UHGV virus genome: UHGV-2025275
From: a virus
Direction: 5' to 3' (one strand)
Length of the DNA: 64,000 nt
Part shown: one piece after another, positions 7,522 through 61,731 of the stretch
Layout: each line of letters begins with the position of its first letter
How positions within the stretch are numbered: position 1 is the stretch's first letter
Translations under genes and position numbers: made by a program
The notes under the pieces: generated by a model
Told to the model about the DNA's origin: nothing
Databases searched by the model: none
The model's input: only the letters and a program-made list of their open reading frames with translations

Positions 7522-7541
7522 ATAGGTAAATACTTACCTAT
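7522..7541. promoter_or_regulatory. motif-1 palindrome ATAGGTAAATACTTACCTAT
   Basis: Near-perfect 20-bp palindrome, one of ~16 dispersed intergenic copies. Confidence 0.5.
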
Positions 7542-7799
7542 CATTTTGTGACAAAAATCCAATATCACGCTTGTGAGGCATATCAGCTGCGGAGTAGACG
7601 GCGATCTTCGACAGGCGGTCACACATTAAGTCGGCTTTGAGCGAGGAGCGGACGTTGACTTAGCCGGATCGCTTAGGGCTTTTAATATTACTGGCGCGGA
7701 TTTCTGGGATACTTTCAAGCTCTTTCCTCAACTAAAACGGAAAATTTCGGCGGACTTTCTACTAGATAGTCCGCCATTATAGTTGCTTTTATATAGTTA

Positions 7800-9482
7800 T
7801 TAATCAACCTTCCAAACGTTGACAGCTTGCTTTGACATCCATTTCTGAAAATCATTGACAGTTTCTAAATTCCACTCTGCATATTCAGTGACTTTTGAAG
7901 CCAGAAAATATCCAGATTTTGTATATTCTTTTTTCTTATCTTCAAATGATGAGCGCTTTAAGTTATCTTTATCCATTAAAATCATGTTTCCAAGCCTATC
8001 TTTTACATCATTAATTCCTTCACCAAAAGAATCGCACCATTCTTTTTCGGGGTGATAAGGACAAATATGTTCTAATGTGGTTTTTTCATAATCACATTGA
8101 TTACCTAAATGCCCCTCAATCTCAGAAAGTAAAAACCGTATTTTTTTTGCCGTTTGCCTACTTGGCATCCTATGAAACTCAAAAGCATTAAAGAATGAAT
8201 TATCATCAGGATACAAGCGTTTAAATTCTTCACTATTTTTTACATGACTAGCTCTTAAAAACTCTCGATTATAAACTTTGTTAGCAATTTGATTGTAAAT
8301 ATTCTCTTGCTCGCTGGGCGATAAGTGGCAAATAACGTTATAACGAATAGATAATACGTATAAATATCTTACGAGTTTAACAAACTCTTCAGGAGAAAAG
8401 TTACCGAAGGCAGCAAGGAATATCGTAAGTGGTTGCTTGATATTGAATAACCTTATTCCATTAAGATAATGCAAAACATTTCTGTATTTCTCATCTTGAT
8501 CTCCCCACCATGCATCATTAGGGTTAATCAATGATGCATAGATAGGTGAGTAGTCAATTAATGATTTTAAATACTGATACGCTTCTTCCGGTTTCGTTAA
8601 TATCTTTCTCATAGAGGAAAACAGGTTGTTCTTAGTGACCATTTTTCTCTGCGAGTTATAGTGATATCTAATGTAATCAGAAACATTGCTTTCGCCAAGT
8701 TGGACGATCATTTCTGACCATTGCTCGTCCAAATCATTGAGTTCATCTTCTCCGATTTGATCATCTTTTGTCACAATTGAGAATAAATAGTTCTTAAGTA
8801 GATCTGGGGTGGAAAGTTGAACACCTCTCGCATTCAAAGTTTCAAAAACTTTATAAGCATTAAGATCATCTTGCACTATTATCTTTGTGAAAACCATGCT
8901 CGAAGAAAAATCTGCAATGAACTGAGCAATATCAGCACCTGTTCTACCAAAATCTTTCTTAGTAAAAAAATCAAAACATTTTCTTATCAATTTATTAGTC
9001 GATGTTATACCTCGAGGATTTTGAGTCTCTAAATGCGATGACATTCTTTGAAAATAACTTTTATTGTTTCTATTTAGTTCTAATTTATTAATCACTTTGA
9101 GCGTAACGAAGTTCTTACTTCCTACAAAGTTTTGAGTTATACCATTGAGTCGCTCAGTGTTTCCCTCTACATCCTCTCCATTATCAATTAAGGTTTTGAT
9201 AGCTTTCATTGCAGCCAGAACTATAATCGATAACGTAACTAAACGTTGTTGCCCATCGATAATTTCATGTTGATACTGTTCTTTTTGCTGAAGGACAATG
9301 TAGCCCATATAATGGAACCCTTCATCATCAAGTGCATTTATATCCCCCCACAAGTCCTCCCATTGCCCCACATCCCATGCGTAGTCTCGCTGGAACCTGG
9401 GTACAATATATTTGTTTGGACCACCAATTAATTCATTAAAATTCTCATTTTTTGGTTCCATCAACATAAATTGCTTTGCCAT
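7800..9482 (-). CDS. DUF262 (ParB-like NTPase/nuclease) + C-terminal DUF1524 (His-Me finger) protein, GmrSD-like type IV restriction-like enzyme
   Basis: PRFQRDYAW … IDGQQRL (DGQQR motif of DUF262); C-terminal LEHICP…H region; gene markedly AT-rich vs neighbours. Confidence 0.65.
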   Translation of the reverse strand: MAKQFMLMEPKNENFNELIGGPNKYIVPRFQRDYAWDVGQWEDLWGDINALDDEGFHYMGYIVLQQKEQYQHEIIDGQQRLVTLSIIVLAAMKAIKTLIDNGEDVEGNTERLNGITQNFVGSKNFVTLKVINKLELNRNNKSYFQRMSSHLETQNPRGITSTNKLIRKCFDFFTKKDFGRTGADIAQFIADFSSSMVFTKIIVQDDLNAYKVFETLNARGVQLSTPDLLKNYLFSIVTKDDQIGEDELNDLDEQWSEMIVQLGESNVSDYIRYHYNSQRKMVTKNNLFSSMRKILTKPEEAYQYLKSLIDYSPIYASLINPNDAWWGDQDEKYRNVLHYLNGIRLFNIKQPLTIFLAAFGNFSPEEFVKLVRYLYVLSIRYNVICHLSPSEQENIYNQIANKVYNREFLRASHVKNSEEFKRLYPDDNSFFNAFEFHRMPSRQTAKKIRFLLSEIEGHLGNQCDYEKTTLEHICPYHPEKEWCDSFGEGINDVKDRLGNMILMDKDNLKRSSFEDKKKEYTKSGYFLASKVTEYAEWNLETVNDFQKWMSKQAVNVWKVD

Positions 9483-10422
9483 TTAATCAATTCCCGTTAT
9501 TTTAAAATGACGTCATCATAAGGCTGCTAATTATTAACAAGGAAATATGACGAAAGTTTGCATAATTTTGATGTACTATGAACAATTCAAGCATTAAAAG
9601 GGACTCTTGACGCTCGACTTCATAAAAGATAATCATCTAGGCAGCCTTGAGCAAGCTATAGAGTTGTTAAAAGTCATCCTATATATCTAAACCACTGTCT
9701 GGAGCAACTGTAACTTAGAGCGCGAACACTCAAGAATCCCCGCTGGTAGTGGCAACTTTTGACAATTCGCTCCCATCGCCGGTTGACTGGCCTGTCCTCA
9801 GTTGATTAACACATTTTGAGGTCAGCTATGTCCGCTTATGGCACATTGAAGACATTGCGATGGGCGATTTTTTTCTCTCGCGCGCGTGCGTGTAAATATT
9901 AAAAATGTTTAGAAAATAAAAACTTACTTCCCAGAACAGGTTTTAATAAAACCTGAACTGAACGAACGAAGTGAGTGAAGTTCACCTCGAACGAAGTGAG
10001 AGGTTGTCTTTTCAGGTAATACTCTCCCAGGGAGGTGAGTACAAAATCTCCTCACCAACCTGGTCGTTACATAACCTGAAAAGTTATGACCTAAGTCTAC
10101 TGCCAGCTTAGGCTTGGGAAGTTATGGATGACAGCACCCCAGAACCGAGATCTTCCCACACTTTATGAAGGGGAGTACTGGATTCAACCTCTCGAAACAC
10201 TCCAGACTCGACAATCATAAAGTGACCCTTCTCTCCGCTCACTTTGGTTCCCCCTTCCCCAACCCCTAAGCGGTGCCGGTTCTACGCTGGTAGTGAGCTT
10301 TTTTAAACCTGACGCCAGTGACGCTATCCCCCACCCATCAGGTCGAGCTGCCGGAATCAATCCGGAAAGCGAGTGGATTTTATCACTGGCGATCTGCGTT
10401 TTAAATGGTAAGTACTTACCGA

Positions 10423-10653
10423 TTATTTCGATTGATTATTTTCTCGACCATGAAGCTGGACGTTCAGGGCAAACACCTCATTGATGAGTTCCCCTAACAG
10501 CTGCTCCACCAGCTCTTTGTGCTCGCCTGAATGAAGACATTTGAGCGACCATTCGTAGAGACTGAAAGCCTTATCGCGATCTTTCATCATGTCGCGCACT
10601 TTGGCCAGAAAATCGCTCTCAACGAGCGCTACGACGTTCGTCGGGTATACCAT
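10423..10653 (-). CDS. hypothetical protein (76 aa)
   Basis: ATG with AAGGAA SD. Confidence 0.5.
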   Translation of the reverse strand: MVYPTNVVALVESDFLAKVRDMMKDRDKAFSLYEWSLKCLHSGEHKELVEQLLGELINEVFALNVQLHGRENNQSK

Positions 10654-10857
10654 GATAGTTTTCCTTACTGTGGTTCATAAAATCGATTCTAGAGCGTCTG
10701 AAGAGGGGTTCCAGTGGGTTCTGGAGGTGTAAAACGGTCTGGGAGTTGTTTGGAAATCACGTCTTAAAAAGCCTGCGTCTGTATATATTAATAATTAGTA
10801 CTTAGTTATTTATATATATACGGAAGCAGGTTCTCAAACTAACTCCCAGACTGGTGT

Positions 10858-11451: not shown

Positions 11452-11463
11452 TACTTTGCTTTG

Positions 11464-11483
11464 ATAGGTAAACACTTACCTAT
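11464..11483. promoter_or_regulatory. motif-1 palindrome ATAGGTAAACACTTACCTAT 13 nt upstream of dam start
   Basis: perfect palindrome arms TAGGTAA/TTACCTA. Confidence 0.5.
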
Positions 11484-11635
11484 TTTTTCATTTAATCCAA
11501 CGGATAGCAAACAAAGAAGAACGCGCCAGATCCGCAAACGGGAAGCTCTCTGGCGCGTTTATCGATGCTGGGTATGCGATTGGCTTACCCAGCGTCCTAA
11601 AGCTCTCAGGGGGCTTTAGATCGGGTAGGGGAACA

Positions 11636-12478: not shown

Positions 12479-12606
12479 TTTTAACTCCTTATGTTTTCGT
12501 TGGTGCGTTTCCGCGTTTTGGTTGAGCGTATTCTGGCAAAACCTATCAGGCGGAAAAGTCATAATTACAGGCAGTTAGAAGAACTGAAGGCAAAGAAAAA
12601 GCGCCA

Positions 12607-13164: not shown

Positions 13165-13173
13165 TGGTACTCC

Positions 13174-13593: not shown

Positions 13594-13656
13594 TCTGTTT
13601 TTCCTCGATTCATTTCGCGTGTCTTATTGTCACACTGCCCAACAGGGGAGCAATAT

Positions 13657-15187: not shown

Positions 15188-15188
15188 A

Positions 15189-16304: not shown

Positions 16305-16481
16305 ACAAGATAAGTAAGTACATACATATTATTTTATACAAGTTTATCTGTCAGAAGTGTGTAAGGCTAGGAGGGGAGTAAAAAAAATGGTGGCTCTTAG
16401 GCCACCATTGCAATGAGCAATTAAGAACTTGGACAATAAAACACGCCCAGGCAATATATAATGATAAGTAGATACTTACAA

Positions 16482-17378
16482 TTATTTTTTTACCATCTCG
16501 TAAAGAGATGAGGCTTTCGCCTTCTCAACAAAGCGAGTCAGATCCACATCGCTGTAGGTTGGGGATTTGAGGATCTTGCCATCAGAAACTCTGAAGCCAA
16601 TCATCATGTCAGTCCCTTCAGCGTGGCGGAAGCCCAGATCTTCCTTGTCGTATTTGCAATTCTCTACCGCCACACGACGCTCTTCGGCGTCAGCCGGCCA
16701 CAGCTTGGTCATGTTGGAACGATGGATTTCTGCCACCAGCTCAACAATATCGATACCGAGAAAATCAGCCAGGCGGTAGGTCATCATGCAGGCAACGTAG
16801 ATTTTATTCATCACGCGGCGCAGCTCCTGCACCAATTCGGAATCGCTAATCGGCTTCGCTTCGAGTTTGTCAGCCAGCGCATTCAGCATTAATGCAGCTT
16901 CTTTTGCTTCTTCAAACGGGATGGCCATGTCGTCAAAGACCGTGTTGCCTGGAACCATGATGGTGTGGATGAAGCGATCAACACTCTGCTCTTGGGTGTA
17001 GTAGCTCATACCTGTAGAGATACCGCCTTTGATGGCCACCATTGTGCCGACGCCCACGTAAAGGAAGTCAGCCATCGCGTCCAGCAGTGCCGTGATATCC
17101 CCATTTTTGGCTGCCGGGATGCCCTCGGTAACTGCTTCTTCGTGGATCAGCTTGGCACGCAGACGCAGTAATGCCGGATCTGGAATGGCACGGCGTGGGT
17201 GCTGAAACAGTGTGTGGAACTGGTCAACCATCAAGTAGATGCTTTCCGTTGCCTTGCCAAAACCAGGATTCAACTCGTAAGGCTCAGGCTTAAATCCCAC
17301 GAGTTTGTCTGCGGCAAGTTTCAGATGATCGGTCAGTTTCGTAAATTTCATGTCTTCTTTCTTTCCTTTGGACTTCAT
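16482..17378 (-). CDS. putative MazG-like/all-alpha NTP pyrophosphohydrolase
   Basis: EE..…DxL-type acidic motifs (IHEEAVTEG, LLDAMADFLYV); ORF-track TTG start at 17417, ATGs at 17378/17351. Confidence 0.45.
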   Translation of the reverse strand: MKSKGKKEDMKFTKLTDHLKLAADKLVGFKPEPYELNPGFGKATESIYLMVDQFHTLFQHPRRAIPDPALLRLRAKLIHEEAVTEGIPAAKNGDITALLDAMADFLYVGVGTMVAIKGGISTGMSYYTQEQSVDRFIHTIMVPGNTVFDDMAIPFEEAKEAALMLNALADKLEAKPISDSELVQELRRVMNKIYVACMMTYRLADFLGIDIVELVAEIHRSNMTKLWPADAEERRVAVENCKYDKEDLGFRHAEGTDMMIGFRVSDGKILKSPTYSDVDLTRFVEKAKASSLYEMVKK

Positions 17379-17433
17379 TTGATGCGTCAATTGTGACCCA
17401 GCAGCGCCAGGCCACAAAGTGGTTAAACTCGGC

Positions 17434-21045: not shown

Positions 21046-21066
21046 ATAGATAAGTACTTACCTATC
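21046..21066. promoter_or_regulatory. motif-1 palindrome ATAGATAAGTACTTACCTATC upstream of nrdA
   Basis: between resolvase stop and nrdA start. Confidence 0.5.
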
Positions 21067-25625: not shown

Positions 25626-25853
25626 GTGTCTTTTCCTTTGTGGTTATTTTGATACAGATGTTAAGCGTGTTTGAGAGGCGAGCAACCCAGACAACACGGC
25701 ACAGAAGAAAATCTACAGGCACACGATTATGACAAAATATATAAGTAAGTGAATACCTATTTTATGAAGCGACATAGATTTCTAAATGTTACAAGCCACT
25801 CTATAATCGCAGTCACTCATTGATGACAACTAAACGAAAAAGGAGAACGGACG

Positions 25854-30693: not shown

Positions 30694-30733
30694 GATAGGT
30701 AGATACTAACTTATATATTTTTTGCTGTAAATA

Positions 30734-31009: not shown

Positions 31010-31077
31010 GTGTCTTCTCCTTGTTGGTAAGTACTTATTTATATTAATGTGCGCCATGCGGCGCACAATCATTGTGT

Positions 31078-33040: not shown

Positions 33041-33100
33041 GTGTTTCCTTTTGTCGTTTTGGTGTAGGAATGATAAGTAAGTGCTTATATATTTTCAAGT

Positions 33101-36510: not shown

Positions 36511-36629
36511 GTATTTCTCCTTGTTGTGATTGTGGCCATTGGCGCTATGCGCGTTGGGCGTTCGTTTATTCGTGGCTCTTTCGAGCGAGAAGAATGATAG
36601 ATCAGTACTTACTTACGATCTAGCATAAA

Positions 36630-37061
36630 TTAACGGGGAGAGTGGAAACGTTCGGCGCCCAAACGTTCAATCTCCACGATAGCCATTTTGGACGCCTGGA
36701 CAATCATGTCGCGGCGGTGAGAGAAGGCGGCTACAGCGTGCTTGTACAGATCTGCAATGTGCTGGGCATCGTCGAGTTTCTGGCGCTTTGCGAGGTATTG
36801 CGGGTTGGTTCTGACCTTCGCCTCCAGTACGGATTCATTGAACTTTATGCCGTTCATGCTCAGGTTCTTACGCTCATTGTCGTAGATTTTTGCCTCAATC
36901 GCATCGAGGGAGAGTTTTGCATCCGCGACCTCACGCTCTGCCCGCGCCAGCTTAGAGCCATACTCCATCAACAGGCGCGGTTGCTGACGCCAGACTTCCT
37001 CCAGATTGTCGCGGTCGAACTCCAGATCGGACATGATTTTTTTGTAGATATCGGTGCTCAT
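36630..37061 (-). CDS. hypothetical protein (143 aa)
   Basis: ATG ORF. Confidence 0.5.
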   Translation of the reverse strand: MSTDIYKKIMSDLEFDRDNLEEVWRQQPRLLMEYGSKLARAEREVADAKLSLDAIEAKIYDNERKNLSMNGIKFNESVLEAKVRTNPQYLAKRQKLDDAQHIADLYKHAVAAFSHRRDMIVQASKMAIVEIERLGAERFHSPR

Positions 37062-37306
37062 TTTGATAGCCTCTCACTTATTAATGTGTATTGATTATAG
37101 AGATTCAGTTAACGCTAATCCAAGATAGACCGTTATGCTATCTGCTCGAACAACTACTTCTTAGGGCTTGTTAATTGCAGGAGTCTCTCCTATTGTGTTC
37201 GTGAATTTTAATTGAAAGAAATATGGATTTTGAAAGGGATAGAGCCTTCATGTTTCCGCACGGTATTTATCATTAATTATTCAAATTAAAAGGAAATGTT
37301 ATCATC

Positions 37307-37897
37307 ATGTTTGATATTTATAATTTATTAAAGCAAATAGAAGAGAATACGAAACCTGATAATTCTGCTATTTGGATTGCTATAATATCTTCAATATCAG
37401 CTATTGCTGGCGCTGCTATTGGTGCATTTTTGTTATATCGAGGCACAAACAAGCAAATTAAGTCTGCTGCTGCTACTGAAGATAAAAAATTAAAAGCAAC
37501 TATAATTACCGCAGAAAGACTTCGTTGGCTTCAAGAACTAAGATCAAGAAGTAGTGAGTTTTATGCGAATCTCGATATGAATTACAGCTTATTAAAACGA
37601 CAAATAAATCCGCAGACAACCCCGGCATATCAACAAGCTGGGGACGAGTTGGCGAAAACTGTAATGATTGAGTGTAATCAGATAATTTTGTTACTTAATC
37701 CAAAAAAACATAATCAACAAACAATGCGCGATAAATGCAATGAGGCTCTTACTTTTTTTCAGGAATGTGTAGAACTAAGAAATAGAGGTAGTTTTAATTT
37801 TGATGATGTAAAATACGCAGAAATAAAAAGTCAGTATTTTAATGCCTTGACAGAAATTGGCATTGAAACATGGAAGCAGATTAAAGAATTAAGTTAG
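37307..37897 (+). CDS. AT-rich orphan membrane protein (196 aa, one N-proximal TM), opposite strand to flanking operons
   Basis: AAGGA SD; TM IWIAIISSISAIAGAAIGAFLLY; strongly AT-rich codon usage. Confidence 0.6.
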   Translation: MFDIYNLLKQIEENTKPDNSAIWIAIISSISAIAGAAIGAFLLYRGTNKQIKSAAATEDKKLKATIITAERLRWLQELRSRSSEFYANLDMNYSLLKRQINPQTTPAYQQAGDELAKTVMIECNQIILLLNPKKHNQQTMRDKCNEALTFFQECVELRNRGSFNFDDVKYAEIKSQYFNALTEIGIETWKQIKELS

Positions 37898-37961
37898 CAT
37901 CTTACTGGTGTAACATGATTAATAACAATCTCTGCGGTAAGTCTTAAGCTGTTTTCAACAA

Positions 37962-37990
37962 TAAGGCTCGCCATCCGGCGAGCCTTATAA
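37962..37990. terminator. bidirectional terminator GGCTCGCC-ATCC-GGCGAGCC
   Basis: 8-bp GC-rich stem flanked by T-rich tracts on both strands. Confidence 0.7.
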
Positions 37991-38434
37991 TTAAGCGACT
38001 TTCTTCCCAAAAATGTTGGATAGCGTGACTCTGGTCTGGCGCTTCAGCCGATACTGTCTCACATCGCCAATCTTGTTCACTTCCATAAACTCTTTGGCCA
38101 CCTTCAGTACCAGCCGATTGCGGAACACTTTGAACGCCTCCAACTGTTCCTCTGGGTTATCCGATTCGTAGATCTCCAGCAGATACTGGCACGCCTTCGG
38201 ATCTTGCGTTTTAAGCGCCAGCGCTCTGGCACATTTACGTAGGCGACTGATTCTATCGGCTCCATCCAGCCCGGCGAACGCCAGCGCCAAATCTAACGTG
38301 ACCGGGCAGTCGATGATTTCCCAGAACTGCGACCGCATGGTGGCCGCAACTGCTTTATTCTGAAAATCCGCAGGGATAGCCACCAGCGCTTGTGCAATCT
38401 TCTGTGCCTCGTTCATGGTGTTCTCTTTGTTCAT
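37991..38434 (-). CDS. hypothetical protein (147 aa)
   Basis: ATG overlaps dnaE stop. Confidence 0.5.
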   Translation of the reverse strand: MNKENTMNEAQKIAQALVAIPADFQNKAVAATMRSQFWEIIDCPVTLDLALAFAGLDGADRISRLRKCARALALKTQDPKACQYLLEIYESDNPEEQLEAFKVFRNRLVLKVAKEFMEVNKIGDVRQYRLKRQTRVTLSNIFGKKVA

Positions 38435-43365: not shown

Positions 43366-43461
43366 GTGTTTTTCCTTACTGTTTGTCGTTCGTGGGGTAT
43401 ATCTTATATAAATATATTAGACTGCATAGTAAGTGATTACTTATTTTTACGGGTAAATCCA

Positions 43462-45834
43462 TTACCCAAGAATGATACGAGATAGTTCTGTGACGACTGA
43501 CGGCCCTAACTCTTCTACGCTGTTTACCAGTGCGTAATTTTTGTAGTAACGCCGTGGTGCGTCGGTCAGAACGCCGATAGCCATCAAATCGATGTCACTC
43601 AACGTCTCAATTTCTTTGGTGACGGTTCGCAAATGCTGATGGAACCCGTCGCCTGCAGCACATGGCGCCCCGTCGCTCATAACCAGCATGATCTTCTTGT
43701 CCTCCATTCGCCCTGCAAACAGAGTCGCCAGCTGCGCGACGCTCTCACCATCGACGTTATTGAGCAGGGGGAATGTCTCACACACGCAGCCCATGCGGGC
43801 GCGGATCTCTGGAGAGTTGGCTTTCTCATTCCAGTTTTTGATAATGGGCAGCATTAGCGCCTCGAAACGAGTAAACCCGCGCTTCGATATGGTTTCATAA
43901 TCTGGGCTACCAAACGTGGTAAAGCCGGTGATGATGTTAGGCACATTGATACGATCCAGAGCATCCGCAATGGTGTAGGCGCTTGCGATTGCCAGCTGAA
44001 TCTTCCTGCCGCCCATTGAGCCGGACAAGTCGATCACCTGCTGGACGCACGCGTTCACCGCTCTGTGGTCTTCTTTCTTGCGGAATACGCGGTCGTCGTT
44101 CATTGCCAGACGATACAGGTTCGCGCCATGTATCCGCCCACGTCTCTGGCCTGGGATAAACTGAACTCGGTTGCGGCTGGCGATAGCTCGCTCCAGGTCT
44201 TTGGCCAGAGTCGAAGAAACGCCTGCTGACAGATGTTTTTCGATTTTCAGTTCAAAGAGCTTTCTGCCTTCCGGAACCATGCGGTAGCGATCGACCGGTG
44301 AGTGCATCGGGATTGCGCCGAACGTCTTTCTGGTGCGCTTTACATGCTCTTCAGCCTCATCAATCAACCCGATAAAGTCGTATGAACGATCGTATGGGCG
44401 ATACTCAGAAAGTGAGGTGCTCATAAGCTCTTTGCTGATGGTGGCCGACAGTGCGTCTTCGGTCATTTCGCCTGTTCCGTCTTCCATCTCGTCGAGCGCC
44501 TTGAGTGCGTCCTCCAGAGTCATTTCATCCGGAGCAGGAACAAAGCCTGACTCACTGTCTTCAGGCGCTTCCGCAGCATCCTCATTTTCTTTACCTTCGC
44601 CGTCTGTTTGATCGGCGGCATCATCTTCCTCTTCGCCTTCTCCTTCCGACTCCCCGTGACCGGCATCGGAGTCTTCGCCGTCATCACTATCACTATCCCC
44701 ATCGCCAGCGGCGCCAGAGCCATAACCATCGGAGTCATCGGCGTCTTCGCGAATGCCATCACCAGGCGTTGGAGAGCCAGTGTCATCACTACCACCTTCG
44801 TCATCAGAATCACCTGATTCCATGCCGGCATCATCGGATTCTGAGGTGTCTCCTGATTCCTCTTCGCCTGCTTCTGTATATTTACTTTCTGTATCACTAA
44901 TTTCTTTATCTTCTGTAGGTAAGTTCTTATCTACTGATTCAGGCAAATCAGAATCCCCAGACTCTTCCTCTTCTGAGGCATCATCTTCTTGCTCTTCCTT
45001 GTCGTCGTCTTCGCCTTTGGTACGCTTTGGTGCTGATTCACTATGAGTCGGTTCGTCACCGGCTTCTGGGGTTTCCTCTGACTCATCCTCACTCTTCGAC
45101 GGCTTCCTAGCAGACGATTTAAGCTCTGGTAATTTGCCCTCTGGCTTGTCTTTCATATCCTGCATGATTTGGGCGATAGCAGCTGCTACCTTCACGCAGT
45201 CTTCTGTGTTCGACATATTGCGAACGGCCACGTCGATACCATGCTCTTTGAGCAAGGCCACAGGCTTCTCGATGAGGTGCCAGTGTTCTTCCATAAAGTC
45301 GATGAAAGGGCTTTGGCCATCCCAGGCGCGAACGACCGGGCAAAGGAAGAATTTCAGGAACAATTCACGCTGGTTGCCGTGGCAGATTGAAACCGCCTCT
45401 GAAACTTTGCCCTTGAAGTATTTGTCGATCACCACGTTCTGTGTGGCCAGCAAATTGCGACGAGTTCCGTTGAATACCTGTCCCATTCTGCGTTCAATAA
45501 AAACGTCTTCCAGCGCGTTCCAAAGCCCGGTAGACGGAGCCTTTCCTTTCTCGCGCATCTTCATTGCGACTTTCGGATCAGTAAAGAGGATATGGGCTAC
45601 CTCATGGTCGAGAAAACCACGTACTGCGTTCATGAGGGTTGGTGACGCGTCGTCCGGTATAGATGGGATGTTTACCAGCACTGGTTCGCCGCGCCGGTTG
45701 TAGCGGACATATGCTTCATTACCTCGCTCTGCAACAGGTATCTGTTTGCCTGATAGCATCGCTACAACTCGTTTTACGCAGTCGCGAAAGTCCTGTACCT
45801 CTTTCAGCACAGATCTGGTCATGGCTTTGGACAT
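43462..45834 (-). CDS. cobT: CobT-like protein with long acidic low-complexity region and C-terminal VWA domain
   Basis: MIDAS DLSGSMGG; ~300 aa D/E/S-rich; start at ATG with AAGGAAA SD (ORF extends to 45903 across motif-2 copy). Confidence 0.7.
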   Translation of the reverse strand: MSKAMTRSVLKEVQDFRDCVKRVVAMLSGKQIPVAERGNEAYVRYNRRGEPVLVNIPSIPDDASPTLMNAVRGFLDHEVAHILFTDPKVAMKMREKGKAPSTGLWNALEDVFIERRMGQVFNGTRRNLLATQNVVIDKYFKGKVSEAVSICHGNQRELFLKFFLCPVVRAWDGQSPFIDFMEEHWHLIEKPVALLKEHGIDVAVRNMSNTEDCVKVAAAIAQIMQDMKDKPEGKLPELKSSARKPSKSEDESEETPEAGDEPTHSESAPKRTKGEDDDKEEQEDDASEEEESGDSDLPESVDKNLPTEDKEISDTESKYTEAGEEESGDTSESDDAGMESGDSDDEGGSDDTGSPTPGDGIREDADDSDGYGSGAAGDGDSDSDDGEDSDAGHGESEGEGEEEDDAADQTDGEGKENEDAAEAPEDSESGFVPAPDEMTLEDALKALDEMEDGTGEMTEDALSATISKELMSTSLSEYRPYDRSYDFIGLIDEAEEHVKRTRKTFGAIPMHSPVDRYRMVPEGRKLFELKIEKHLSAGVSSTLAKDLERAIASRNRVQFIPGQRRGRIHGANLYRLAMNDDRVFRKKEDHRAVNACVQQVIDLSGSMGGRKIQLAIASAYTIADALDRINVPNIITGFTTFGSPDYETISKRGFTRFEALMLPIIKNWNEKANSPEIRARMGCVCETFPLLNNVDGESVAQLATLFAGRMEDKKIMLVMSDGAPCAAGDGFHQHLRTVTKEIETLSDIDLMAIGVLTDAPRRYYKNYALVNSVEELGPSVVTELSRIILG

Positions 45835-46177: not shown

Positions 46178-46440
46178 TTCATATCATCCAACTGAACACA
46201 TTTGAAAGTTCGGCAATACTACTACCTATTGTATCAATATGGAATGCACCTATATCAGATACGTCTTACTTTTTTCTGTAAGCGAATGGTGACAAATTGC
46301 TTAAAAACCATAGTATAATGGCGGTACACCGGGGTTTTGTGCCTATCGAAATTAAATAGATAAGTCTTTACAACCCTGGCCTTTGCTGTAATATCAGTAA
46401 GCACTTACCAGAGATAAACAAAACACGCAAGGTTCACTAC

Positions 46441-50882: not shown

Positions 50883-50902
50883 ATAGGTAAGTCATTACTT
50901 AT
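50883..50902. promoter_or_regulatory. motif-1 palindrome ATAGGTAAGTCATTACTTAT upstream of phoH
   Basis: intergenic, 48 nt from start. Confidence 0.5.
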
Positions 50903-50955: not shown

Positions 50956-52347
50956 TTATGCTTCATGTTGCTTTTTGAGATCGCTTCTAGCATAGCTCCA
51001 CTCAATAATGTTGTCGGGTCGTTGCTGATCGAAAAGGATTCGGGATTCAATACCATTACCTAAAAAGCTGGTATGCCCATCTACGTAAGAAGCTATCCCT
51101 TGCGAACCAACATGAAGAATATTTTCTAATGGTTGTTTTGTTCTCGCCGTATTGCTAAGGAGAAATAAACCTGGGTACGCTTTGTTAGCACGGTGAAAAA
51201 AAAGTTCATTGTCAAAACACATGACGATGATTATTTGTCCCGACATGAGATCGGAGAGCATTTCAGTTGGCAGATGCAAACTCATAAATGGCCGAGACAA
51301 AGGGTCAAAGAATGAATCGTTTATATTCACAACAGGGCTTTTTATATCGAGGCCATCCATCCATCCATTGAAGGCAACAAAACCCATTTTAGAATCACGG
51401 TACATACCTAAGAACAAACATTCATCAATAGTATCAATTGCCCAATTTTTTCCTCCGCGAATAATCTCCCACATTTTAACTAAACGGTGGGTATAAAACT
51501 CAGATGGATGGTCTATCTCATCGATTTTAACTTTAGATTGATGAAGATTGTCAAAGCCCTCGCCAGTATTAATCGCCTCCAGCACATTCATACCACGAAC
51601 GATTTGCCTTTTTATGCGATTAAATTGCTTAACATCATTTTCAGGCATATTGCTAATGAAGTTTTCTTCAAAGTTCGGACACTCTGAGATAACAGAAAAT
51701 TCGGCAGCTTCATAAAGCTCATTATTCTTTTTGCCTGTTTTAACTTCCACGAGTTGAAAGCCATCCAGTGGATTAAAGGTGACTAAATCCCCCACATGAA
51801 CAAATGTACTCATGTCAGAGACAATCGCTACGGCGTGTTTGTCCTGATTGATAAGATCGGCTGCGACCATAGAATCAATTATGTTATCTTCTGATAGATT
51901 GTCATTGCCTGTATTAATAGGTAAACGCCGCAAACTCGAGTGATCTTCATCAAGTATGCTCCAAATTAGTGAGTCAATACAACGGCGAAGAATAAGAATT
52001 TCAATTTTTTTTAAATTTATTTCATCAATACACTTTTCTTTCTTTTTTTTATCCTTGTTTCGATGATGCTCTTTTTTTTCAACTTCCAATTTTTTTATAT
52101 CTCGCAACCGAAAAATAATCTCAAAAGATATAAGTTTCTGTGCGTCTTTCCAATTTTTGAGACAGATTTCATACTCTTCAAGAAAAATTTCATCATTGGA
52201 AGGTTGTTCTTGAATTGGGTCTTCACCCCTTATCATTTTGGCAAGTGAATGCAGTTGAAATACAAAGTGAGGTGATAAAATTGTCCAAAATTTTCTAAAC
52301 GGTTTGTATTTTTCAATAAAAGTTGATTCGTCAGTATAATTTATCAT
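50956..52347 (-). CDS. AT-rich hypothetical protein (463 aa) with central PD-(D/E)xK-like nuclease motif
   Basis: …VHVGDLVTFNPLDGFQLVEVKTGKK… (D…E-V-K); own TATAAT-like promoter in 89-nt gap; ~30% GC. Confidence 0.6.
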   Translation of the reverse strand: MINYTDESTFIEKYKPFRKFWTILSPHFVFQLHSLAKMIRGEDPIQEQPSNDEIFLEEYEICLKNWKDAQKLISFEIIFRLRDIKKLEVEKKEHHRNKDKKKKEKCIDEINLKKIEILILRRCIDSLIWSILDEDHSSLRRLPINTGNDNLSEDNIIDSMVAADLINQDKHAVAIVSDMSTFVHVGDLVTFNPLDGFQLVEVKTGKKNNELYEAAEFSVISECPNFEENFISNMPENDVKQFNRIKRQIVRGMNVLEAINTGEGFDNLHQSKVKIDEIDHPSEFYTHRLVKMWEIIRGGKNWAIDTIDECLFLGMYRDSKMGFVAFNGWMDGLDIKSPVVNINDSFFDPLSRPFMSLHLPTEMLSDLMSGQIIIVMCFDNELFFHRANKAYPGLFLLSNTARTKQPLENILHVGSQGIASYVDGHTSFLGNGIESRILFDQQRPDNIIEWSYARSDLKKQHEA

Positions 52348-52436
52348 AACTAAACTACCTCTTATCTATTTTTCTTAAGGTACAAACTGCCAGCCTTATT
52401 TTTTTACACAATTATAGTTATAATGTGAAGTCTCAT

Positions 52437-53306
52437 TCAGATATCTTCATACTGCACGTAAGAAATATTTGAGTCTCTGACATCATAATCTTCTAAGCTG
52501 CCTGACTTTTCCTCACCTCTATATAAAGCAACTATCCATCGAGCATTTTCTTGGATGCTTTTATTTATTTCAGCGAAGTATTCACCGTCAACTTCGGCAA
52601 GCGAATGGCCTAAAACAATGACCTCATCCACATTTTTAAGCGACGAGAAAAAAACGCTCTCTTCTTTAATTATGTTTTCGCTGGGCTTGAATGTATTACC
52701 GAAGTATTCGTCTATGCTGTCGTATGCCTCTGCTATTCTTGTATCTTGATCCGGCCCTATATATGGATTTAGTGACTTTTCAACCCTAAAACTGTGACCT
52801 AGTATGAGATCGTCATCGTAAATACAATTGCCGTGAATATGCATGATTTGCGCGTCTGGAACGGCATAGATCTGCTGCAAGGTATTGGTATAATTAAATG
52901 AAAAATAGAGGCTTTCTCTTGATATGGGCGGGATGTATTGCTCAGAATTGCAAGCATCGGTTATGTTAATCCCTTTAACCCAATCAGCGAATTGCTCCTT
53001 CAAGCGAGCTGACAGCATCCGTGTGATTTTATCTACTTCATATTGGTAATCGTGATGATAGGCATCGCTCCAATCATCGGTATTGTACGAAGCCAAAAAC
53101 ATCTCACTGTTTTGAAGGATAAGCTCATAATCAATTGCGCCTAAAGCACTTTCTAACTCGTTCCATTCGTCTCCAGCAGGCAGGTATTCTTCTATCGCGT
53201 CATATAGTTCTTGGTCATGTTTTGCTACATACGACTTAAAGTGCTTGTATCCTGTTGGCAAGCCATGTCGAATATCAAATCCGTTTCCTATTATGTAAAG
53301 CCTCAT
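52437..53306 (-). CDS. AbiH-family (abortive-infection-like) protein
   Basis: N-terminal MRLYIIGNGFDIRHGLPTGY…F, later FNYTNT and HIHG motifs typical of Pfam AbiH; start at internal ATG with AAGGG SD (ORF extends to 53420). Confidence 0.6.
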   Translation of the reverse strand: MRLYIIGNGFDIRHGLPTGYKHFKSYVAKHDQELYDAIEEYLPAGDEWNELESALGAIDYELILQNSEMFLASYNTDDWSDAYHHDYQYEVDKITRMLSARLKEQFADWVKGINITDACNSEQYIPPISRESLYFSFNYTNTLQQIYAVPDAQIMHIHGNCIYDDDLILGHSFRVEKSLNPYIGPDQDTRIAEAYDSIDEYFGNTFKPSENIIKEESVFFSSLKNVDEVIVLGHSLAEVDGEYFAEINKSIQENARWIVALYRGEEKSGSLEDYDVRDSNISYVQYEDI

Positions 53307-53423
53307 CGTTTTTCCCTTAGTCGAATGGTAAAAAGATACTAACCGACTAAAGAAAAACATAAAACCAAAAGTCGCTATCAAATACAACCACGAATTTTCA
53401 ATCTGACTACCAACCTCCATAGA

Positions 53424-53449
53424 CGCAAAAAAGGGGCCGAAGCCCCTTT
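53424..53449 (-). terminator. intrinsic terminator upstream of AbiH cassette
   Basis: AAGGGGCTTCGGCCCCTT + TTTTTT on minus strand. Confidence 0.7.
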
Positions 53450-53601
53450 GGAATTTGCGCTAAAAAGTGTTGATACAATGCTAGGAATCAATGGTTAAGA
53501 ACGTCTGCCGTGTCTATCACAGCGCTGAACGGTCTGGCGACATTTGCGGAGTCTTTCCGTTCGGACGGTGGTGGCGAACTCCAAACCGTTCAGCGCTGTG
53601 T

Positions 53602-53676
53602 TGGCGATGGTGGGTGGACTCGAACCACCGACCAGTTGATTAACAGTCAACCGCTCTACCACTGAGCTACACCATC
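53602..53676 (-). tRNA. tRNA-Asn (anticodon GTT), CCA encoded
   Basis: GATGGTG acceptor/ TAGCTCAGTGGTAGAGC D-arm / anticodon loop CTGTTAA / GGTTCGAGTCC T-arm / CACCATC-G-CCA. Confidence 0.85.
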
Positions 53677-54686
53677 ATTATTCGCGGCGGTACTTGTTCA
53701 TGGACAACCAGGCAACCAAGAACTTTCCCGCAACTTGCACTTTACGTTAGTGCCAGACGAGGCTTGTGGCTCGCTCACATAGAGCGAAGATCTGGAATCC
53801 TTCTCGGCGGTTGATGGCCGCCAGACTCTTCGATCTTATTGTATGTATGGAATCATCCATGTTGTGAAACCAGGGGCTACATAGGCAACAATGATTTCAC
53901 CAGAGGGTTAAAGAATCCTGCTTTCACAACGTTGAGGCCACTGAACCGATTTATGTTCGACCCAACATATTGATCAGTCACTACAGCTCTGTGGAATCAC
54001 CTGTATGATTAAAAGAAAAACAGTGACCTCAACGTTGTGCGCTGGCTAACCAAGCCAGCCGGGTTACGTCGCCGCTTTTAACCCAAAATAAAACGACATA
54101 AGTAATGGAAATGACGTAACAGGATGGGCGGTCAGCTGTCTGAAACCGGGATGATGGAATGGAATGAGGAAACCAGCCGCCCATCCTGTTACTTCATCGA
54201 ATAGGGCATGGGTGGTGCAACATGCCCTATCCTGCGTTCTGCAAGGGGTGAGTTTGGAGATCGGAAATTATTGTACGTTAAGCCTGTTTTTTGAACAGAT
54301 CGCGCTATCGCAATAGGGTGTACTCCTGCACTATACGGCATTTAGCCTGTATGTTTGGGTAATGAGAAAACCTAAATGCGACAGCGTGAGCGCAATAACT
54401 TAAATGCGATAGTCAGTGACAATAAATCAATCAGTTACCAATCAGAAACGGTTAAATTATGTTCTTAACGTACAATAATTTCCGTTTCCCAAACCGACCC
54501 CTGCAATCACACTCGCTCAGTGTGTCCCATTTCGGTGACGAGGCTGGAAACTGACCTCGCTGGTGTTTGGCTTCTTAGGCTACTGCCAGGTACGTATCTT
54601 CGTTTGCAGTTATATTTAACGTTCAAACAGTCGCGTCTCAACGAAAACAAATGAATCTTATACATAATAGATAAGTAAGTAAATAC

Positions 54687-54992
54687 CTATTTTTCTGTAA
54701 CTCGTTCAGTTGCTATCTTTTTGATCAAGCTCACCTTCTGTTCTGGCGTTCTCGTGATGATGGCCGTAAAACGCTTCGCTTGAATAGTGATAGTTTCGTT
54801 CTCCTTCAGTTCGCCGTAGTGAGTCTCCAGCAGAGAACCCAGGCGCCACAGACCGTCATCTATGCGTTTATGGCTGGCAAATCTGATCAGCAGTAGCTTT
54901 ACGATTAACTGACCAATGTAAAAGGCATATCCGAAGCCGGCCGCCACAAGGTAGGTTGCCAGCCACCAGTCGAATGAGGTCAAATTGCTCAT
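54687..54992 (-). CDS. membrane protein (101 aa)
   Basis: N-terminal TM; stop codon embedded in motif-1 copy. Confidence 0.5.
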   Translation of the reverse strand: MSNLTSFDWWLATYLVAAGFGYAFYIGQLIVKLLLIRFASHKRIDDGLWRLGSLLETHYGELKENETITIQAKRFTAIITRTPEQKVSLIKKIATERVTEK

Positions 54993-56835: not shown

Positions 56836-56841
56836 TAGTGT

Positions 56842-57357
56842 TTAACCTCCATCGGTCGCTCGGGAGTTTTCATGTGTTTTTTTGGTTGCTTCTTCAATGA
56901 GTGCCGCGTACACGTCAGTGACGGGCGCCAGTGAATCGGTGGACGTGGTTTCGGGTTTGGCTGATTCTGTTTTCTTCGTGCGTTTAACCAGACTGTTAAT
57001 CGTCATGGTGTTGCGCTTCCGGGTAAGCGTTCTGGCGTGGTCGTTTTGCTCTTCCACTTCTTTGATAAGCGCAGCCATATCGATGAAGTAGAGTTGTTCG
57101 CCTTTGCGGATCTCTTCGACCATCATCTTCAGCGCCTGGCATTTTCCAGCAGCAATGGCCGCAGCGCAGGACTGGAACGATGTAGCCGGGAGACGCTTCT
57201 CTTTGTAGGCGAGGATGGTGTGCTGGCAGACTGTATAGCTGCAATGGGCCTCATGGCCGTTGATCTTCACTTCCGGGCAGCGCAGCGAATAACCGTTGTT
57301 TCCGGAGATAGACGGGATTTTCGACAAATCTGTTCTTGTGGACATGCTTCTAACCAT
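56842..57357 (-). CDS. hypothetical protein (171 aa) with Cys/His cluster
   Basis: CPEVKINGHEAHCSYTVCQH; start overlaps motif-1 copy so true start may be downstream ATG. Confidence 0.45.
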   Translation of the reverse strand: MVRSMSTRTDLSKIPSISGNNGYSLRCPEVKINGHEAHCSYTVCQHTILAYKEKRLPATSFQSCAAAIAAGKCQALKMMVEEIRKGEQLYFIDMAALIKEVEEQNDHARTLTRKRNTMTINSLVKRTKKTESAKPETTSTDSLAPVTDVYAALIEEATKKTHENSRATDGG

Positions 57358-57425
57358 AGTCGTGTACTTACTTATTGAGCGCAGTTTAAAAAAGCCCCAC
57401 CAGGGGCTAAATGGTTTATCGAGGC

Positions 57426-58220: not shown

Positions 58221-58300
58221 AAAGGTTCCTCAATTCCTTCTTCGCGCATATTCTTACAGAAAAATAAGTATATATCTACTTATCATTAGCGGCGTGCAAT

Positions 58301-59422: not shown

Positions 59423-59568
59423 TTACCGCAGTTTTTAAAAGGCAATATCTTGATAAGCCTCGTTTTTTGAATACCATAAAGGCTCATGTGTTTTTCCTTT
59501 TGTGATTAAACAAAAGGTAATTTTTAAGGGCGTGGGGCTGTTATCCGTCTTTGCCCCACGCCTATTTT

Positions 59569-60909: not shown

Positions 60910-60927
60910 GTGTTTGTTATCCTTTGG

Positions 60928-60950
60928 TGCTTAAACAAGTTGTTTTCTAA
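60928..60950. promoter_or_regulatory. motif-2 palindrome upstream of helicase gene
   Basis: gcttaaacaagttgttttctaat. Confidence 0.5.
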
Positions 60951-60973
60951 TCGTAAAAATATGGAGCAGGCGA

Positions 60974-61699
60974 TCAACACAGTCGCCGTGCTTCTTCCAG
61001 TTCTTCCGGGTAATGGGCATAGATAACGCGCTCAGGCACCAGCTCCATCAACCAGACAGCAGAGAAGATGGTGCGGATACGCTTATCACGGGTTATGTGT
61101 TTCAAACGCTCCAGAACCCATTCAAAGTAACGTTCCTGAATTGGGTCATGCTGCATGTCTCCTAAGTGCTTAAAACTCACTACAGAGTCATCCAGACGCG
61201 TTCCCGCACGACTGGCGAGTTTGTTTTCGAAGATCTCAATCAGTTCTGGCTGCCAGAGGTGCTGAGGGCGAGGTAATTTGTCCCAGAGCCGGCGCGCAGC
61301 TGCAGAGAGAACGGTTGATATAAAATAGTCATAAGAGCAGCAATATCTATCTGCAAACTGGCGAGCTTTCCAAAGGGATGTTTTGTTCACCGCCGCGAGC
61401 TCTTGGTAAGGCAAGCGTTTCAGGCCAGTACTAAATGGCGCCGTCTCGAAATGCTCGCGGCCATGGGATAGCATGATCTGTGAGTATGAACGCTTATAGG
61501 CTTCTGTGAACAGGCAGGTTGCCATCAGCGGGTGCATGTCGCGATAGTCAAACCACTTTGTATCAAAGAGCTCAGCCTCCCCCTGGCATCGTGAAAGACC
61601 GATGTTTTCCGCAACCCACTTGTCCATGGCAGCTGTGTTCCACTCCATCATGAAGTCGTACTGGCCGTTGTTTATGGTGTCAAAAAAGATCTGGCTCAT
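60974..61699 (-). CDS. hypothetical protein (241 aa)
   Basis: motif-1 copy 10 nt upstream. Confidence 0.55.
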   Translation of the reverse strand: MSQIFFDTINNGQYDFMMEWNTAAMDKWVAENIGLSRCQGEAELFDTKWFDYRDMHPLMATCLFTEAYKRSYSQIMLSHGREHFETAPFSTGLKRLPYQELAAVNKTSLWKARQFADRYCCSYDYFISTVLSAAARRLWDKLPRPQHLWQPELIEIFENKLASRAGTRLDDSVVSFKHLGDMQHDPIQERYFEWVLERLKHITRDKRIRTIFSAVWLMELVPERVIYAHYPEELEEARRLC

Positions 61700-61708
61700 G
61701 CCCTCACC

Positions 61709-61731
61709 GATAGGTAACTACTTACTTATTG
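61709..61731. promoter_or_regulatory. motif-1 palindrome GATAGGTAACTACTTACTTATTG
   Basis: intergenic. Confidence 0.5.

Follow-up and report, generated by a model that had tools for sequence, protein, structure and literature searches.

A dispersed palindrome at the operon junctions of SSU5-type phage-plasmids is very probably the site of one symmetric phage-encoded regulator

The 64,000-nucleotide virus sequence UHGV-2025275 (hereafter the window, meaning the whole stretch) carries many copies of a 20-bp palindrome, here called the box, at the junctions between its operons. The boxes are very probably cis-regulatory double-stranded DNA (dsDNA) sites for one symmetric phage-encoded regulator that organizes the lytic transcription units. 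The analysis shows genuine, symmetric sites that are specific to junctions and conserved in position and that are not hairpins. A sequence-only reading of this DNA had listed about 16 copies and offered four candidate roles: operator of a dimeric regulator, phage-specific promoter, weak bidirectional terminator and RNase III-type hairpin. The first two remain, and may be two views of one element, an activator box within the lytic promoters; the last two are rejected because the two arms vary independently. No published description of the element was found in the literature on SSU5, pHCM2, palindromes or the motif strings.

The window contains 8 matches to the consensus ATAGGTAAGTACTTACCTAT with <=3 mismatches, compared with 0 in 100 dinucleotide shuffles, and 15 matches with <=4 mismatches, where 0.03 are expected. 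A weight matrix of 28 columns finds 21 sites at >=15 bits (0.15 expected) and 19 sites at >=18 bits (0 expected). The repeat is real, being far more common in the window (19-21 copies) than in shuffled sequence (0-0.15). Nearly all previously listed positions hold a copy within 0-4 nt, namely 7522, 11464, 16464, 21046, 25741, 30695, 31023, 33073, 36597, 43425, 50883, 54671, 57356, 58264 and 61710. The copy at 46393 is recognizable but weak and was not recovered in SSU5, and the supposed degenerate copy at 10791 marks the midpoint of another element, a long palindrome of 59 bp (10772-10830). The list was also incomplete: additional copies lie at 3221, 10404, 16310, 44915 (intragenic) and, weakly, 63161.

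On sequence grounds the window is an SSU5/pHCM2-type phage-plasmid, since it is 97.8% identical to Salmonella phage SSU5 across 8 kb and matches 801 PLSDB plasmids (from Klebsiella, Escherichia, Enterobacter, Yersinia, Salmonella and others). The plus strand of SSU5, which encodes nearly all of its lytic genes, corresponds to the minus strand of the window. Roughly, the window covers the tail-fibre end, the genes for partition, the modules for replication and nucleotide metabolism, and a number of accessory genes; the terminase end and the regulatory region fall outside it. Two further relatives, Cyrano (E. coli) and Klebsiella phage ST13-OXA48phi12.3, each show ~77% nucleotide identity to the window. 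In PHROG and Pfam scans of ~60 proteins, most SSU5 proteins were of "unknown function".

The complete SSU5 genome has 26 sites, and 24 of the 26 lie outside coding sequence although only 11.6% of the genome is intergenic (p = 8e-21). The earlier description of the copies as always intergenic therefore nearly holds, the intragenic copy at 44915 in the window being an exception. All SSU5 sites with >=18 bits fall within structural, lysis, replication or nucleotide-metabolism modules; among their locations are the terL|portal junction, the downstream side of the capsid gene and the upstream sides of the tail-fibre and holin genes. In the lysogeny, plasmid and accessory modules the only copies found were weak ones (93165 and 99798) and a long palindrome at 103278.

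Positions of the boxes are conserved among related genomes. Cyrano and the Klebsiella phage have a box at the same junctions as the window, while the surrounding non-coding DNA has diverged. In a 103-kb IMG/VR relative whose portal protein shows 55% identity, TTAAGTAAGTACTTACTTAA occurs at terL|portal and at other places. The Acinetobacter baumannii phage-plasmid ZW85p2, which has ~45 proteins in common with SSU5 (21-60% identity), contains 30-40 copies of ATTAGTAAGCGCTTACTAAT, found at terL|portal, before the major capsid protein (MCP) gene, after it (followed by a terminator), before terS and in the DEAD helicase/ParB divergent region. In Paraburkholderia and Magnetospirillum molischianum, where syntenic elements were located via the winged-helix gene described below, the boxes read GAACAGTCAAAACTGACTGTTC and TAAAGTCA-N4-TGACTTTA and occupy the ZW85p2 junctions. 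A comparison of SSU5/Cyrano/Klebsiella, the IMG/VR relative, ZW85p2, Paraburkholderia and Magnetospirillum gives a set of junctions with a cognate palindrome (DEAD-helicase|ParB divergent region, upstream of terS, terL|portal, before MCP, MCP stop-box-terminator, and 011|012), most of which are occupied in each lineage. Aligned in register, the lineages have in common the core GT[A/C]A-N4-T[T/G]AC. Each lineage has its own central four bases and outer arms, and in the Magnetospirillum relatives the centre varies freely.

In gene orientation, the site reads aAAAwa-ATArGTAAGTACTTACyTAT-cAtt, and its most conserved positions are five TA steps, one every 4 bp. The symmetry extends as far as the A/T-rich flanks, with only two marginal asymmetries (p ~0.01 each), the pattern that a dimeric helix-turn-helix protein whose wings contact the minor groove would give. 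The T-run said to follow the motif is present, but it is one half of this symmetric flank, which in gene orientation consists of AAA on the upstream side and TTT on the downstream side.

A perfect copy can form a stem of 8-10 bp, and the sites are intergenic, lie beside terminators and have T-rich and A-rich flanks, all of which would be in keeping with a nucleic-acid hairpin (a terminator, an RNase III or other processing site, an mRNA stabilizer or an element like the repetitive extragenic palindromes). We consider this extremely unlikely. Among 25 sites, 82.0% of cells pair between the arms compared with 81.7% in shuffles (229 of 500 shuffles were at least equal), and the covariation score of the arms is 0.142 in both real and shuffled data. 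Among 67 distinct sites from four genomes there are 461 Watson-Crick pairs, where 471 are expected (p = 0.94). A-C mismatches are common at positions 4/17, which are unpaired in 9 of 25 sites. Because the arms do not covary, the element does not act as an RNA or DNA hairpin; the lack of compensatory changes also implies that it is read as dsDNA by a symmetric protein. The stem is A/T-rich and at most 10 bp long, far shorter than the ~20 bp of double-stranded RNA that RNase III requires, and its A/T flanks are symmetric rather than a U-run on one strand. A terminator scan selects the genuine G+C-rich hairpins that stand next to the boxes, not the boxes themselves; an Rfam scan of the window gave no match besides tRNA-Asn; and lineage variants keep the half-sites while the centre is free to vary. 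The two covariation tests together with the Rfam scan led us to reject the hairpin, terminator and RNase III readings.

Association of the boxes with terminators, also pointed out in the sequence-only reading, is real, but the order is not fixed: by junction, the terminator precedes the motif or follows it. Many boxes lie at, or a few bases from, the stop codon of the upstream gene, and hairpins beside them, identified with RNAfold windows, define three arrangements. In the first (33073, 57356 and 31023), the box is the sole conserved non-coding element in the 41-64 nt that separate a hairpin or terminator from the next ribosome-binding site (RBS) and ATG. In the second, a stop codon is followed by the box, a G+C-rich hairpin with a T-run, and the RBS, an order found downstream of the capsid gene and upstream of nrdA and of several tail genes; the capsid-gene version is found in 4 of 4 lineages examined, with the hairpin starting 8-11 nt past the 14-bp core.

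The third arrangement is a palindrome of 55-65 bp with G+C-containing arms of 12-17 nt, usually a box-like centre in an A/T-rich interior, and a T-run in gene orientation. Such long palindromes head major modules (replication, terS and gene 089), and the sequence of their arms differs by lineage while complementarity is kept. They are probably real terminator hairpins, as suggested by the covariation of their arms between lineages. One in the window (10772-10830, minus strand; found by inverted-repeat search) has 17-nt arms CCTGCGTCTGTATATAT / ATATATACGGAAGCAGG followed by a T-run, and its motif-like centre (10794-10813, 21.4 bits) makes it a terminator-like hairpin with a box at its tip. Another (61813-61865, minus strand), with arms CCTGCTTCTGTA / TACAGAAGCAGG and a T-rich tail, is a terminator-like hairpin heading the replication module. 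SSU5 has three per genome, at 33473, 78319 and 103278, the last upstream of terS (L001:33440-33530, L002:28290-28380 and L003:3240-3299, wrapping to L001:1-30). In the Acinetobacter plasmid the architecture is the same, but the arms have other sequences.

The boxes also behave as transcription-unit boundaries in an uninduced population. We used a published E. coli LF82 RNA-seq table for Cyrano lysogens grown in lysogeny broth (PMC9928086), in which the background median is 9.8. Between neighbouring genes, the mean absolute change in expression is 1.95 log2 at box junctions and 1.11 log2 elsewhere (p = 0.014). Lytic genes are at background in the lysogen, with few exceptions on the lytic strand.

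We found no conserved -35 element next to the boxes, and sigma-70-type promoter matches are not enriched (20 found, 21.6 expected), as the sequence-only reading had anticipated in stating that the motif does not fit sigma-70 -35/-10 spacing. Two or three boxes do lie within good -35/-10 pairs (16464, 33073 and SSU5 3544); most have no -35 element. With -10-like sequences also at variable offsets, we rejected a fixed sigma-70 geometry. The outer right arm of the box and the next three bases together read TATcAt in SSU5, and in Acinetobacter TATAAT often follows CTTAC directly, many copies there reading ...GCGCTTAC-TATAAT.

These features resemble the late promoters of P1, likewise a phage-plasmid, which depend on Lpa (gp10) and the host protein SspA. 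P1 late promoters consist of AAGTGACTT, 4 nt and TAnnnT without a -35 element; ~11 dispersed inverted repeats (AAGTGACTT or AAGTTACTT) replace the -35 and head the late operons. Five of these promoters read AAGTGACTT, AAGTGACTA, AAGTGATTT, ATGTGACTT and AAGTTACTT, a 9-bp AAGTnACTT known as the "-22 region". The core of the SSU5 box, AAGTACTT, has the same half-sites, AAGT/ACTT, 3 nt before TATcAt. In SSU5 the 8-bp AAGTACTT sits inside the 20-bp palindrome, and the 9-bp form of P1 is seen only in the centres of long palindromes, two of which read AAGTTACTT and AAGTGACTT. The gene order lpa-pacA-pacB in P1 is also paralleled here by a winged-helix gene followed by terS-terL. The two systems nevertheless differ. 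The box is 20-22 bp and symmetric to its flanks rather than 9 bp; its ~25 copies stand in front of genes for DNA metabolism and replication, not of late genes alone; and its spacing to the -10 is 1-2 bp shorter. A tblastn search with P1 Lpa gave no match in SSU5, Cyrano or the window, and among the scanned proteins the Pfam family BPP1_LPA (PF25716) matches P1 Lpa only.

By analogy with P1 Lpa, the boxes may be activator-dependent lytic promoters that lack a -35 element, with terminators insulating the units; this is the mechanism that we consider most likely, at a probability a little short of even. One dimeric phage-encoded regulator would bind the boxes, which would thus be a regulon signal marking the start of almost every lytic unit, whether of DNA metabolism, replication, structural or lysis genes. 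Each box would form the upstream half of a promoter, and only with the regulator bound would the polymerase of the host make use of the -10-like, A/T-rich sequence located at or past the promoter-proximal arm. Intrinsic terminators before, after or (in the long palindromes) around the box would stop read-through between units. The transcript start is predicted to lie ~10 nt past the box, inside or beyond the left arm of the following hairpin, so that re-initiated transcripts would escape that terminator. The regulator itself would be the MarR/PadR-like winged-helix protein SSU5_130/CYRAN_123. The promoter role, the positive control, the position of the start site and the identity of the binding protein are inferred.

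Several observations speak against such activated promoters. TAnnnT occurs 3 nt past the core in 15 of 25 sites of the SSU5 lineage, and equally in 15 of 25 on the antisense side; in Acinetobacter the antisense flank is at least as -10-like as the sense flank. A search for direction in the box flanks of the SSU5 lineage and Acinetobacter detected no encoding of it. Conserved -10-like blocks (TGTAAGAAT, TGTCATAAT, TATATT, TATCTT and TAGAAT) stand at variable distance, 0 to 22 nt downstream of the box, and therefore fit an operator better than a geometry-dependent activator. For genes 066, dam, portal, thyX and 065, the start codon is only 1-17 nt past the box, so that a start site ~10 nt downstream would remove their RBSs. 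Expression steps at box junctions in the non-induced lysogen go up in 6 of 21 cases and down in 7 of 21. Taken by itself, the sequence fixes neither direction nor start site. The sole clear directional signal that we found is the asymmetric centre AAAC of the Paraburkholderia boxes, which in 9 of 9 copies has gene orientation (p = 0.004).

Some of these points would suit the opposite sign of control, in which a global repressor would use the boxes as its operators and silence every lytic operon in the plasmid prophage by blocking weak host-type promoters. The logic of dispersed operators is known from P1 C1 and from KorA/KorB of RK2. Such a repressor would account for the background expression of lytic genes in the Cyrano lysogen. 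It would also fit the variable position of the boxes, some of which abut or overlap RBSs and ATGs, as is typical of operators, and the two boxes that form the spacers of good TTGAAA-N17-TATCAT/TATGAT promoters. A degenerate copy lies in the 64-bp divergent control region adjoining the lysogen-expressed operon of the helicase and a ribbon-helix-helix (RHH) protein, with a perfect TATAAT beside it pointing to that operon. P1 provides the precedent: many operators of one regulator, C1, are dispersed before lytic operons and one lies at its own control region, as would be the case here. However, C1 operators are asymmetric 17-mers over recognizable sigma-70 promoters while the boxes are palindromic and mostly have no -35 element at all, and C1 does not directly control structural genes while the boxes also precede structural and lysis genes. 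Moreover, no matching lysogen-expressed repressor was found here: we found no DNA-binding protein that combines expression in the lysogen with a conserved DNA-reading surface. The Cyrano repressor CYRAN_45 adjoins an integrase, where SSU5 annotates no genes. Finally, immunity operators normally diverge among relatives, whereas the core of the box is kept across alpha-, beta- and gamma-proteobacterial hosts. On balance, we find a global repressor somewhat unlikely, although it is the main rival of the activated promoters.

Three syntenic candidates for the binding protein are present near the regulatory region in all lineages: a pair of ParB_N proteins, the RHH protein and a winged-helix protein. 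The winged-helix protein, SSU5_130 in SSU5 and CYRAN_123 in Cyrano, has 85-107 residues and is encoded outside the window, between the gene for a 129-like ATPase and terS, directly upstream of terS in 5 of 5 lineages. Its AlphaFold2 model (predicted local distance difference test, pLDDT, 87.3) consists of H1-H2-H3, a beta-hairpin wing and H4, and Foldseek matched it best to AF1382, MexR, MepR, MarR and PadR (probability 1.0, template-modelling score ~0.75). No Pfam family matched the protein, a viral fold search with it returned only generic winged-helix proteins, and its family of 356 clusters at 50% identity is uncharacterized. The gene is at background in the lysogen (7.8; PMC9928086) and can therefore be regarded as a lytic-phase factor; in macrophages at 6 h it climbs to log2 6.6, with its upstream neighbours remaining at 3.6-5.2.

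The recognition helix of this protein, TK(Q/A)S(M/I/L)QFSIRAL, is almost unchanged in SSU5, Paraburkholderia and Magnetospirillum; its QFSIRAL segment is identical or near-identical (QFTLRRM) in four lineages from alpha-, beta- and gamma-proteobacteria. This constancy matches the deep conservation of the box core. MarR-DNA complexes offer a further parallel: such dimers give a 20-bp palindromic footprint with conserved blocks ~10 bp apart and A/T-rich outer flanks. The box fits this footprint, and the candidate has the same winged-helix fold as the MarR/PadR regulators, which bind palindromes of 16-22 bp. In contrast to MarR, however, it is a minimal 88-residue form without the long dimerization helices, and MarR proteins are usually local repressors rather than genome-wide phage activators.

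Other evidence weakens the pairing of protein and box. The recognition helix does not follow the GTAA/GTCA difference between half-sites, it diverges in Acinetobacter though the half-site is unchanged there, and covariation of helix and box across five lineages showed no clean residue-to-base correspondence. Consequently, the putative pairing draws on co-conservation and synteny only. There is also no homology between this family and P1 Lpa (hhalign probability 0.1). The winged-helix protein is our best candidate regulator and a predicted box binder, and we propose only tentatively that it is the activator.

The RHH protein (SSU5_123/CYRAN_117; L002:47912-48190) follows the DEAD/UvsW-like helicase in all lineages checked, and both genes are expressed in the Cyrano lysogen (RHH 114, helicase 46). 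Its fold was assigned by reading the sequence, and only the Acinetobacter counterpart has a weak Pfam RHH match. The predicted base-contacting beta-strand differs among SSU5, Cyrano and the Klebsiella phage despite the same box, which further counts against a global repressor. We rejected the protein as the box binder on account of this variable DNA-reading strand; plausibly, it is a lineage-specific immunity repressor with a separate operator. The annotated "transcriptional repressor" SSU5_121 (L002:46897-47343, outside the window) is a full-length member of the FljA family, "Repressor of phase-1 flagellin" (PF03614, E = 3e-81), and was likewise rejected as a repressor acting on the box. Given this membership, it may serve phage-plasmid interference with host flagellin expression instead of repression in lysogeny.

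Scattered palindromes of 14-22 bp are the format of parS, KorB OB and Noc sites. The boxes could accordingly be thought of as parS/OB-like loading sites for ParB-like proteins, with roles in DNA organization, partition or long-range silencing and anti-silencing of the kind associated with KorB, Noc and VirB. Every lineage has kept the two ParB_N-domain genes, the first of which has a box immediately in front of it. In RK2, about a dozen palindromic OA/OB sites of KorA/KorB are dispersed on the plasmid at variable distance from promoters, with ParB-family genes nearby, much as dispersed palindromes and ParB_N genes occur here. A Pfam scan of SSU5_125, however, detects only the ParB N-terminal domain and no helix-turn-helix domain, and in the plasmid state few genes are expressed as little as CYRAN_119 and CYRAN_120 (5.0 and 9.5, median 9.8), which is at odds with a role in partition or in silencing the prophage. 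In contrast to RK2, the boxes lie in phage lytic modules and not in modules for plasmid maintenance. A separate ParA partition gene is located elsewhere. Since only the N-terminal domain is present in the ParB-like proteins and their genes are silent in the lysogen, we rejected them as binders, and we regard ParB loading as very improbable.

The very high information of the box, ~25-38 bits per site as in single-factor phage promoters, raises the alternative that it is a promoter read directly by a phage-encoded sigma factor or other phage-specific transcription machinery. This too seems improbable. Sigma factors read asymmetric elements, while the box is symmetric to its flanks, and neither the annotation nor the ~60 scanned proteins include an RNA polymerase or sigma-like protein. 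The Acinetobacter relative ZW85p2 does encode a divergent protein annotated as sigma-70 family (L085:42323-42988; weak Sigma70_r2 match, E = 0.0026) between its MoxR/cobS and DnaE genes, but it has no homologue in SSU5, Cyrano or the window, and such a factor was discarded as the reader of the box. The ZW85p2 sigma gene is followed by one for a cysteine-rich protein (L085:41592-42272), whose N-terminus matches the 67-residue SSU5_051. These could be a sigma/anti-sigma pair, of which the SSU5 lineage kept only the small cysteine-rich remnant.

Individual copies in the window are given here in order of position; they lie on the minus strand except for those at 46393 and 63161, to which no strand was assigned, and distances are in gene orientation. 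The copy ATAGGTAACCACATACTTAT (3221..3240, 30.5 bits) directly follows the stop codon of a DUF4942 methyltransferase-like gene, with the next ATG 42 nt on and the conserved block TTTaTGTAAGAAT downstream; its orthologues are at SSU5 84178, Cyrano 84620 and Klebsiella phage 39500. The strongest copy in the window, ATAGGTAAGTATTTACCTAT (7522..7541, 38.4 bits, 1 mismatch), is ~130 nt 5' of an SSU5_091-like gene (SSU5 79904, Cyrano 79651, Klebsiella phage 35408). ATCGGTAAGTACTTACCATT (10404..10423, 28.3 bits) abuts the stop codon of an SSU5_089-like gene (SSU5 78709, Cyrano 78477, Klebsiella phage 34240). In Cyrano, the small gene CYRAN_81 (L005:28657-28791) is just downstream of the orthologue of this copy and is among the few lytic-strand genes expressed in the lysogen (117, background 9.8); in the window, a low-GC insertion adjoins the corresponding position (9483-10403). 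CYRAN_81 may be a moron or a non-coding RNA.

The copy ATAGGTAAGTGTTTACCTAT (11464..11483, 33.9 bits) is 12 nt 5' of the likely ATG of a Dam-like methyltransferase gene and has orthologues at SSU5 77651, Cyrano 77436 and Klebsiella phage 33187. Two boxes precede thyX. The second, ATATGTATGTACTTACTTAT (16310..16329, 35.0 bits), has the start codon 17 nt downstream and orthologues at SSU5 72511, Cyrano 72595 and Klebsiella phage 28355. The other, AATTGTAAGTATCTACTTAT (16464..16483, 27.5 bits), lies at the stop codon of a mazG-like gene, is conserved in three genomes and, according to a promoter scan, supplies the -35-like hexamer of TTGTAA-17-TATATT (16481-16453). ATAGGTAAGTACTTATCTAT (21046..21065, 33.6 bits, 1 mismatch), for which orthologues were found in relatives, is 46 nt 5' of nrdA, and within 7 nt of it begins the terminator-like hairpin GAGGCCACTA...TAGTGGCCTT followed by TTTTT. 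ATAGGTATTCACTTACTTAT (25741..25760, 28.6 bits), 115 nt 5' of an sbcD-like gene, is followed by the conserved extended -10-like TGTCATAAT at 7-15 nt downstream and has the conserved block atATTTTGtcataat. ATAAGTTAGTATCTACCTAT (30695..30714, 29.3 bits) stands 1 nt 5' of the ATG that opens an SSU5_066-like gene for a small conserved membrane peptide, and this ATG and its frame are kept in SSU5, Cyrano and the Klebsiella phage. ATAAATAAGTACTTACCAAC (31023..31042, 22.7 bits) has the hairpin gtgcgccgcatggcgcac 6 nt upstream, and AAGGAG and the ATG of an SSU5_065-like gene immediately downstream.

Orthologues in relatives were also found for ATATATAAGCACTTACTTAT (33073..33092, 32.4 bits), which forms the spacer of TTGAAA-N17-TATCAT, with an intrinsic terminator 12 nt upstream and the RBS and ATG of an SSU5_061-like gene 32 nt downstream. 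GTAAGTAAGTACTGATCTAT (36597..36616, 26.6 bits) is 86 nt 5' of a gp32-like single-stranded DNA-binding protein gene (SSU5 52175, Cyrano 52659, Klebsiella phage 9285). ATAAGTAATCACTTACTATG (43425..43444, 23.4 bits), with its right arm shifted by one base, is ~58 nt 5' of a MoxR/CobS-like ATPase gene (SSU5 45124). The intragenic copy GTAGATAAGAACTTACCTAC (44915..44934, 16.9 bits) lies within a cobT-like gene, where it is read in the sole stop-free frame, and is conserved at SSU5 43661 and Klebsiella phage 862. The copy ATCAGTAAGCACTTACCAGA (46393..46412, 14.7 bits, 6 mismatches) is doubtful, no orthologous site having been recovered in SSU5.

Symmetric flanks lengthen the palindrome of ATAAGTAATGACTTACCTAT (50883..50902, 35.3 bits; ATG 47 nt downstream) to ~30 bp. 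ATAGGTATTTACTTACTTAT (54671..54690, 34.8 bits), at the stop codon of an SSU5_048-like gene, is followed by a strongly conserved non-coding block and then by tRNA-Asn (53602-53676). The non-coding stretch TATgTATAAGATtcaTTTGTTTTCGTTGAGACGCGACTGTTTGAAC (54590-54670, gene orientation), which comes after this box and ~0.9 kb upstream of the tRNA-Asn gene, is near-invariant in SSU5, Cyrano and the window and has no Rfam match; it may be a leader or a small RNA. ATAAGTAAGTACACGACTAT (57356..57375, 18.0 bits) lies between an intrinsic terminator (AGCCCC..GGGGCT and TTTTT) 11 nt upstream and the ATG of an SSU5_043-like gene 10 nt downstream. ATAAGTAGATATATACTTAT (58264..58283, 32.0 bits) is in the divergent region before an SSU5_042-like gene, with the conserved block TTTCTGTAAGAATA downstream. 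ATAAGTAAGTAGTTACCTAT (61710..61729, 30.7 bits; Cyrano 31296) is 10 nt 5' of the ATG of an SSU5_038-like gene, which opens the replication module and precedes the genes for DnaB helicase and primase. The weak motif-like copy TTATGTAAGTAAATATTTAA (63161..63180, 15.5 bits) is in a low-GC accessory region.

Low-GC islands occur in the window at 8001-10000 (0.36), 36001-38000 (0.43), 52001-54000 (0.40) and 62001-64000 (0.35), in a backbone with a GC content of ~0.50-0.55. They coincide with genes that are missing from SSU5 or lie on the opposite strand, and they probably represent cargo, accessory or for defence, that was inserted at sites between lytic operons. Three low-GC IMG/VR contigs unrelated to SSU5 (L015, L058 and L061) contain GTAAGTAAGTACTTACTTAT, a gap of ~27 nt and ATCAGTCAGCACTTACTGAT; such (GTAA)n-type palindromes in unrelated phage contigs would be either chance occurrences or the site of another regulator.

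Phage-plasmids of the SSU5/pHCM2/pMT1 type are common in clinical Enterobacteriaceae and Acinetobacter, and published work shows that they carry antibiotic-resistance genes. Almost nothing has been charted of how they regulate their genes, and most of their proteins are unannotated. A recognizable box before nearly every lytic operon provides an operon map, a handle on induction and a candidate protein-DNA pair. If the boxes are indeed activator-dependent promoters, they would represent a second, independently evolved case of the many late promoters without a -35 element known from P1, and a compact orthogonal promoter/activator set common to three classes of Proteobacteria. A bolder proposition, which we consider unlikely as it stands, is that phage-plasmids of the SSU5 supercluster run their whole lytic programme from one ancient module of a minimal winged-helix activator from an uncharacterized family and ~25 symmetric boxes, each coupled to or nested in an intrinsic terminator, such that read-through would end there and transcription would begin anew inside the hairpin. 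If true, this module would be a self-insulating "promoter-in-terminator", potentially bidirectional and portable across hosts, that spans Enterobacteriaceae, Acinetobacter, Paraburkholderia and Magnetospirillum.

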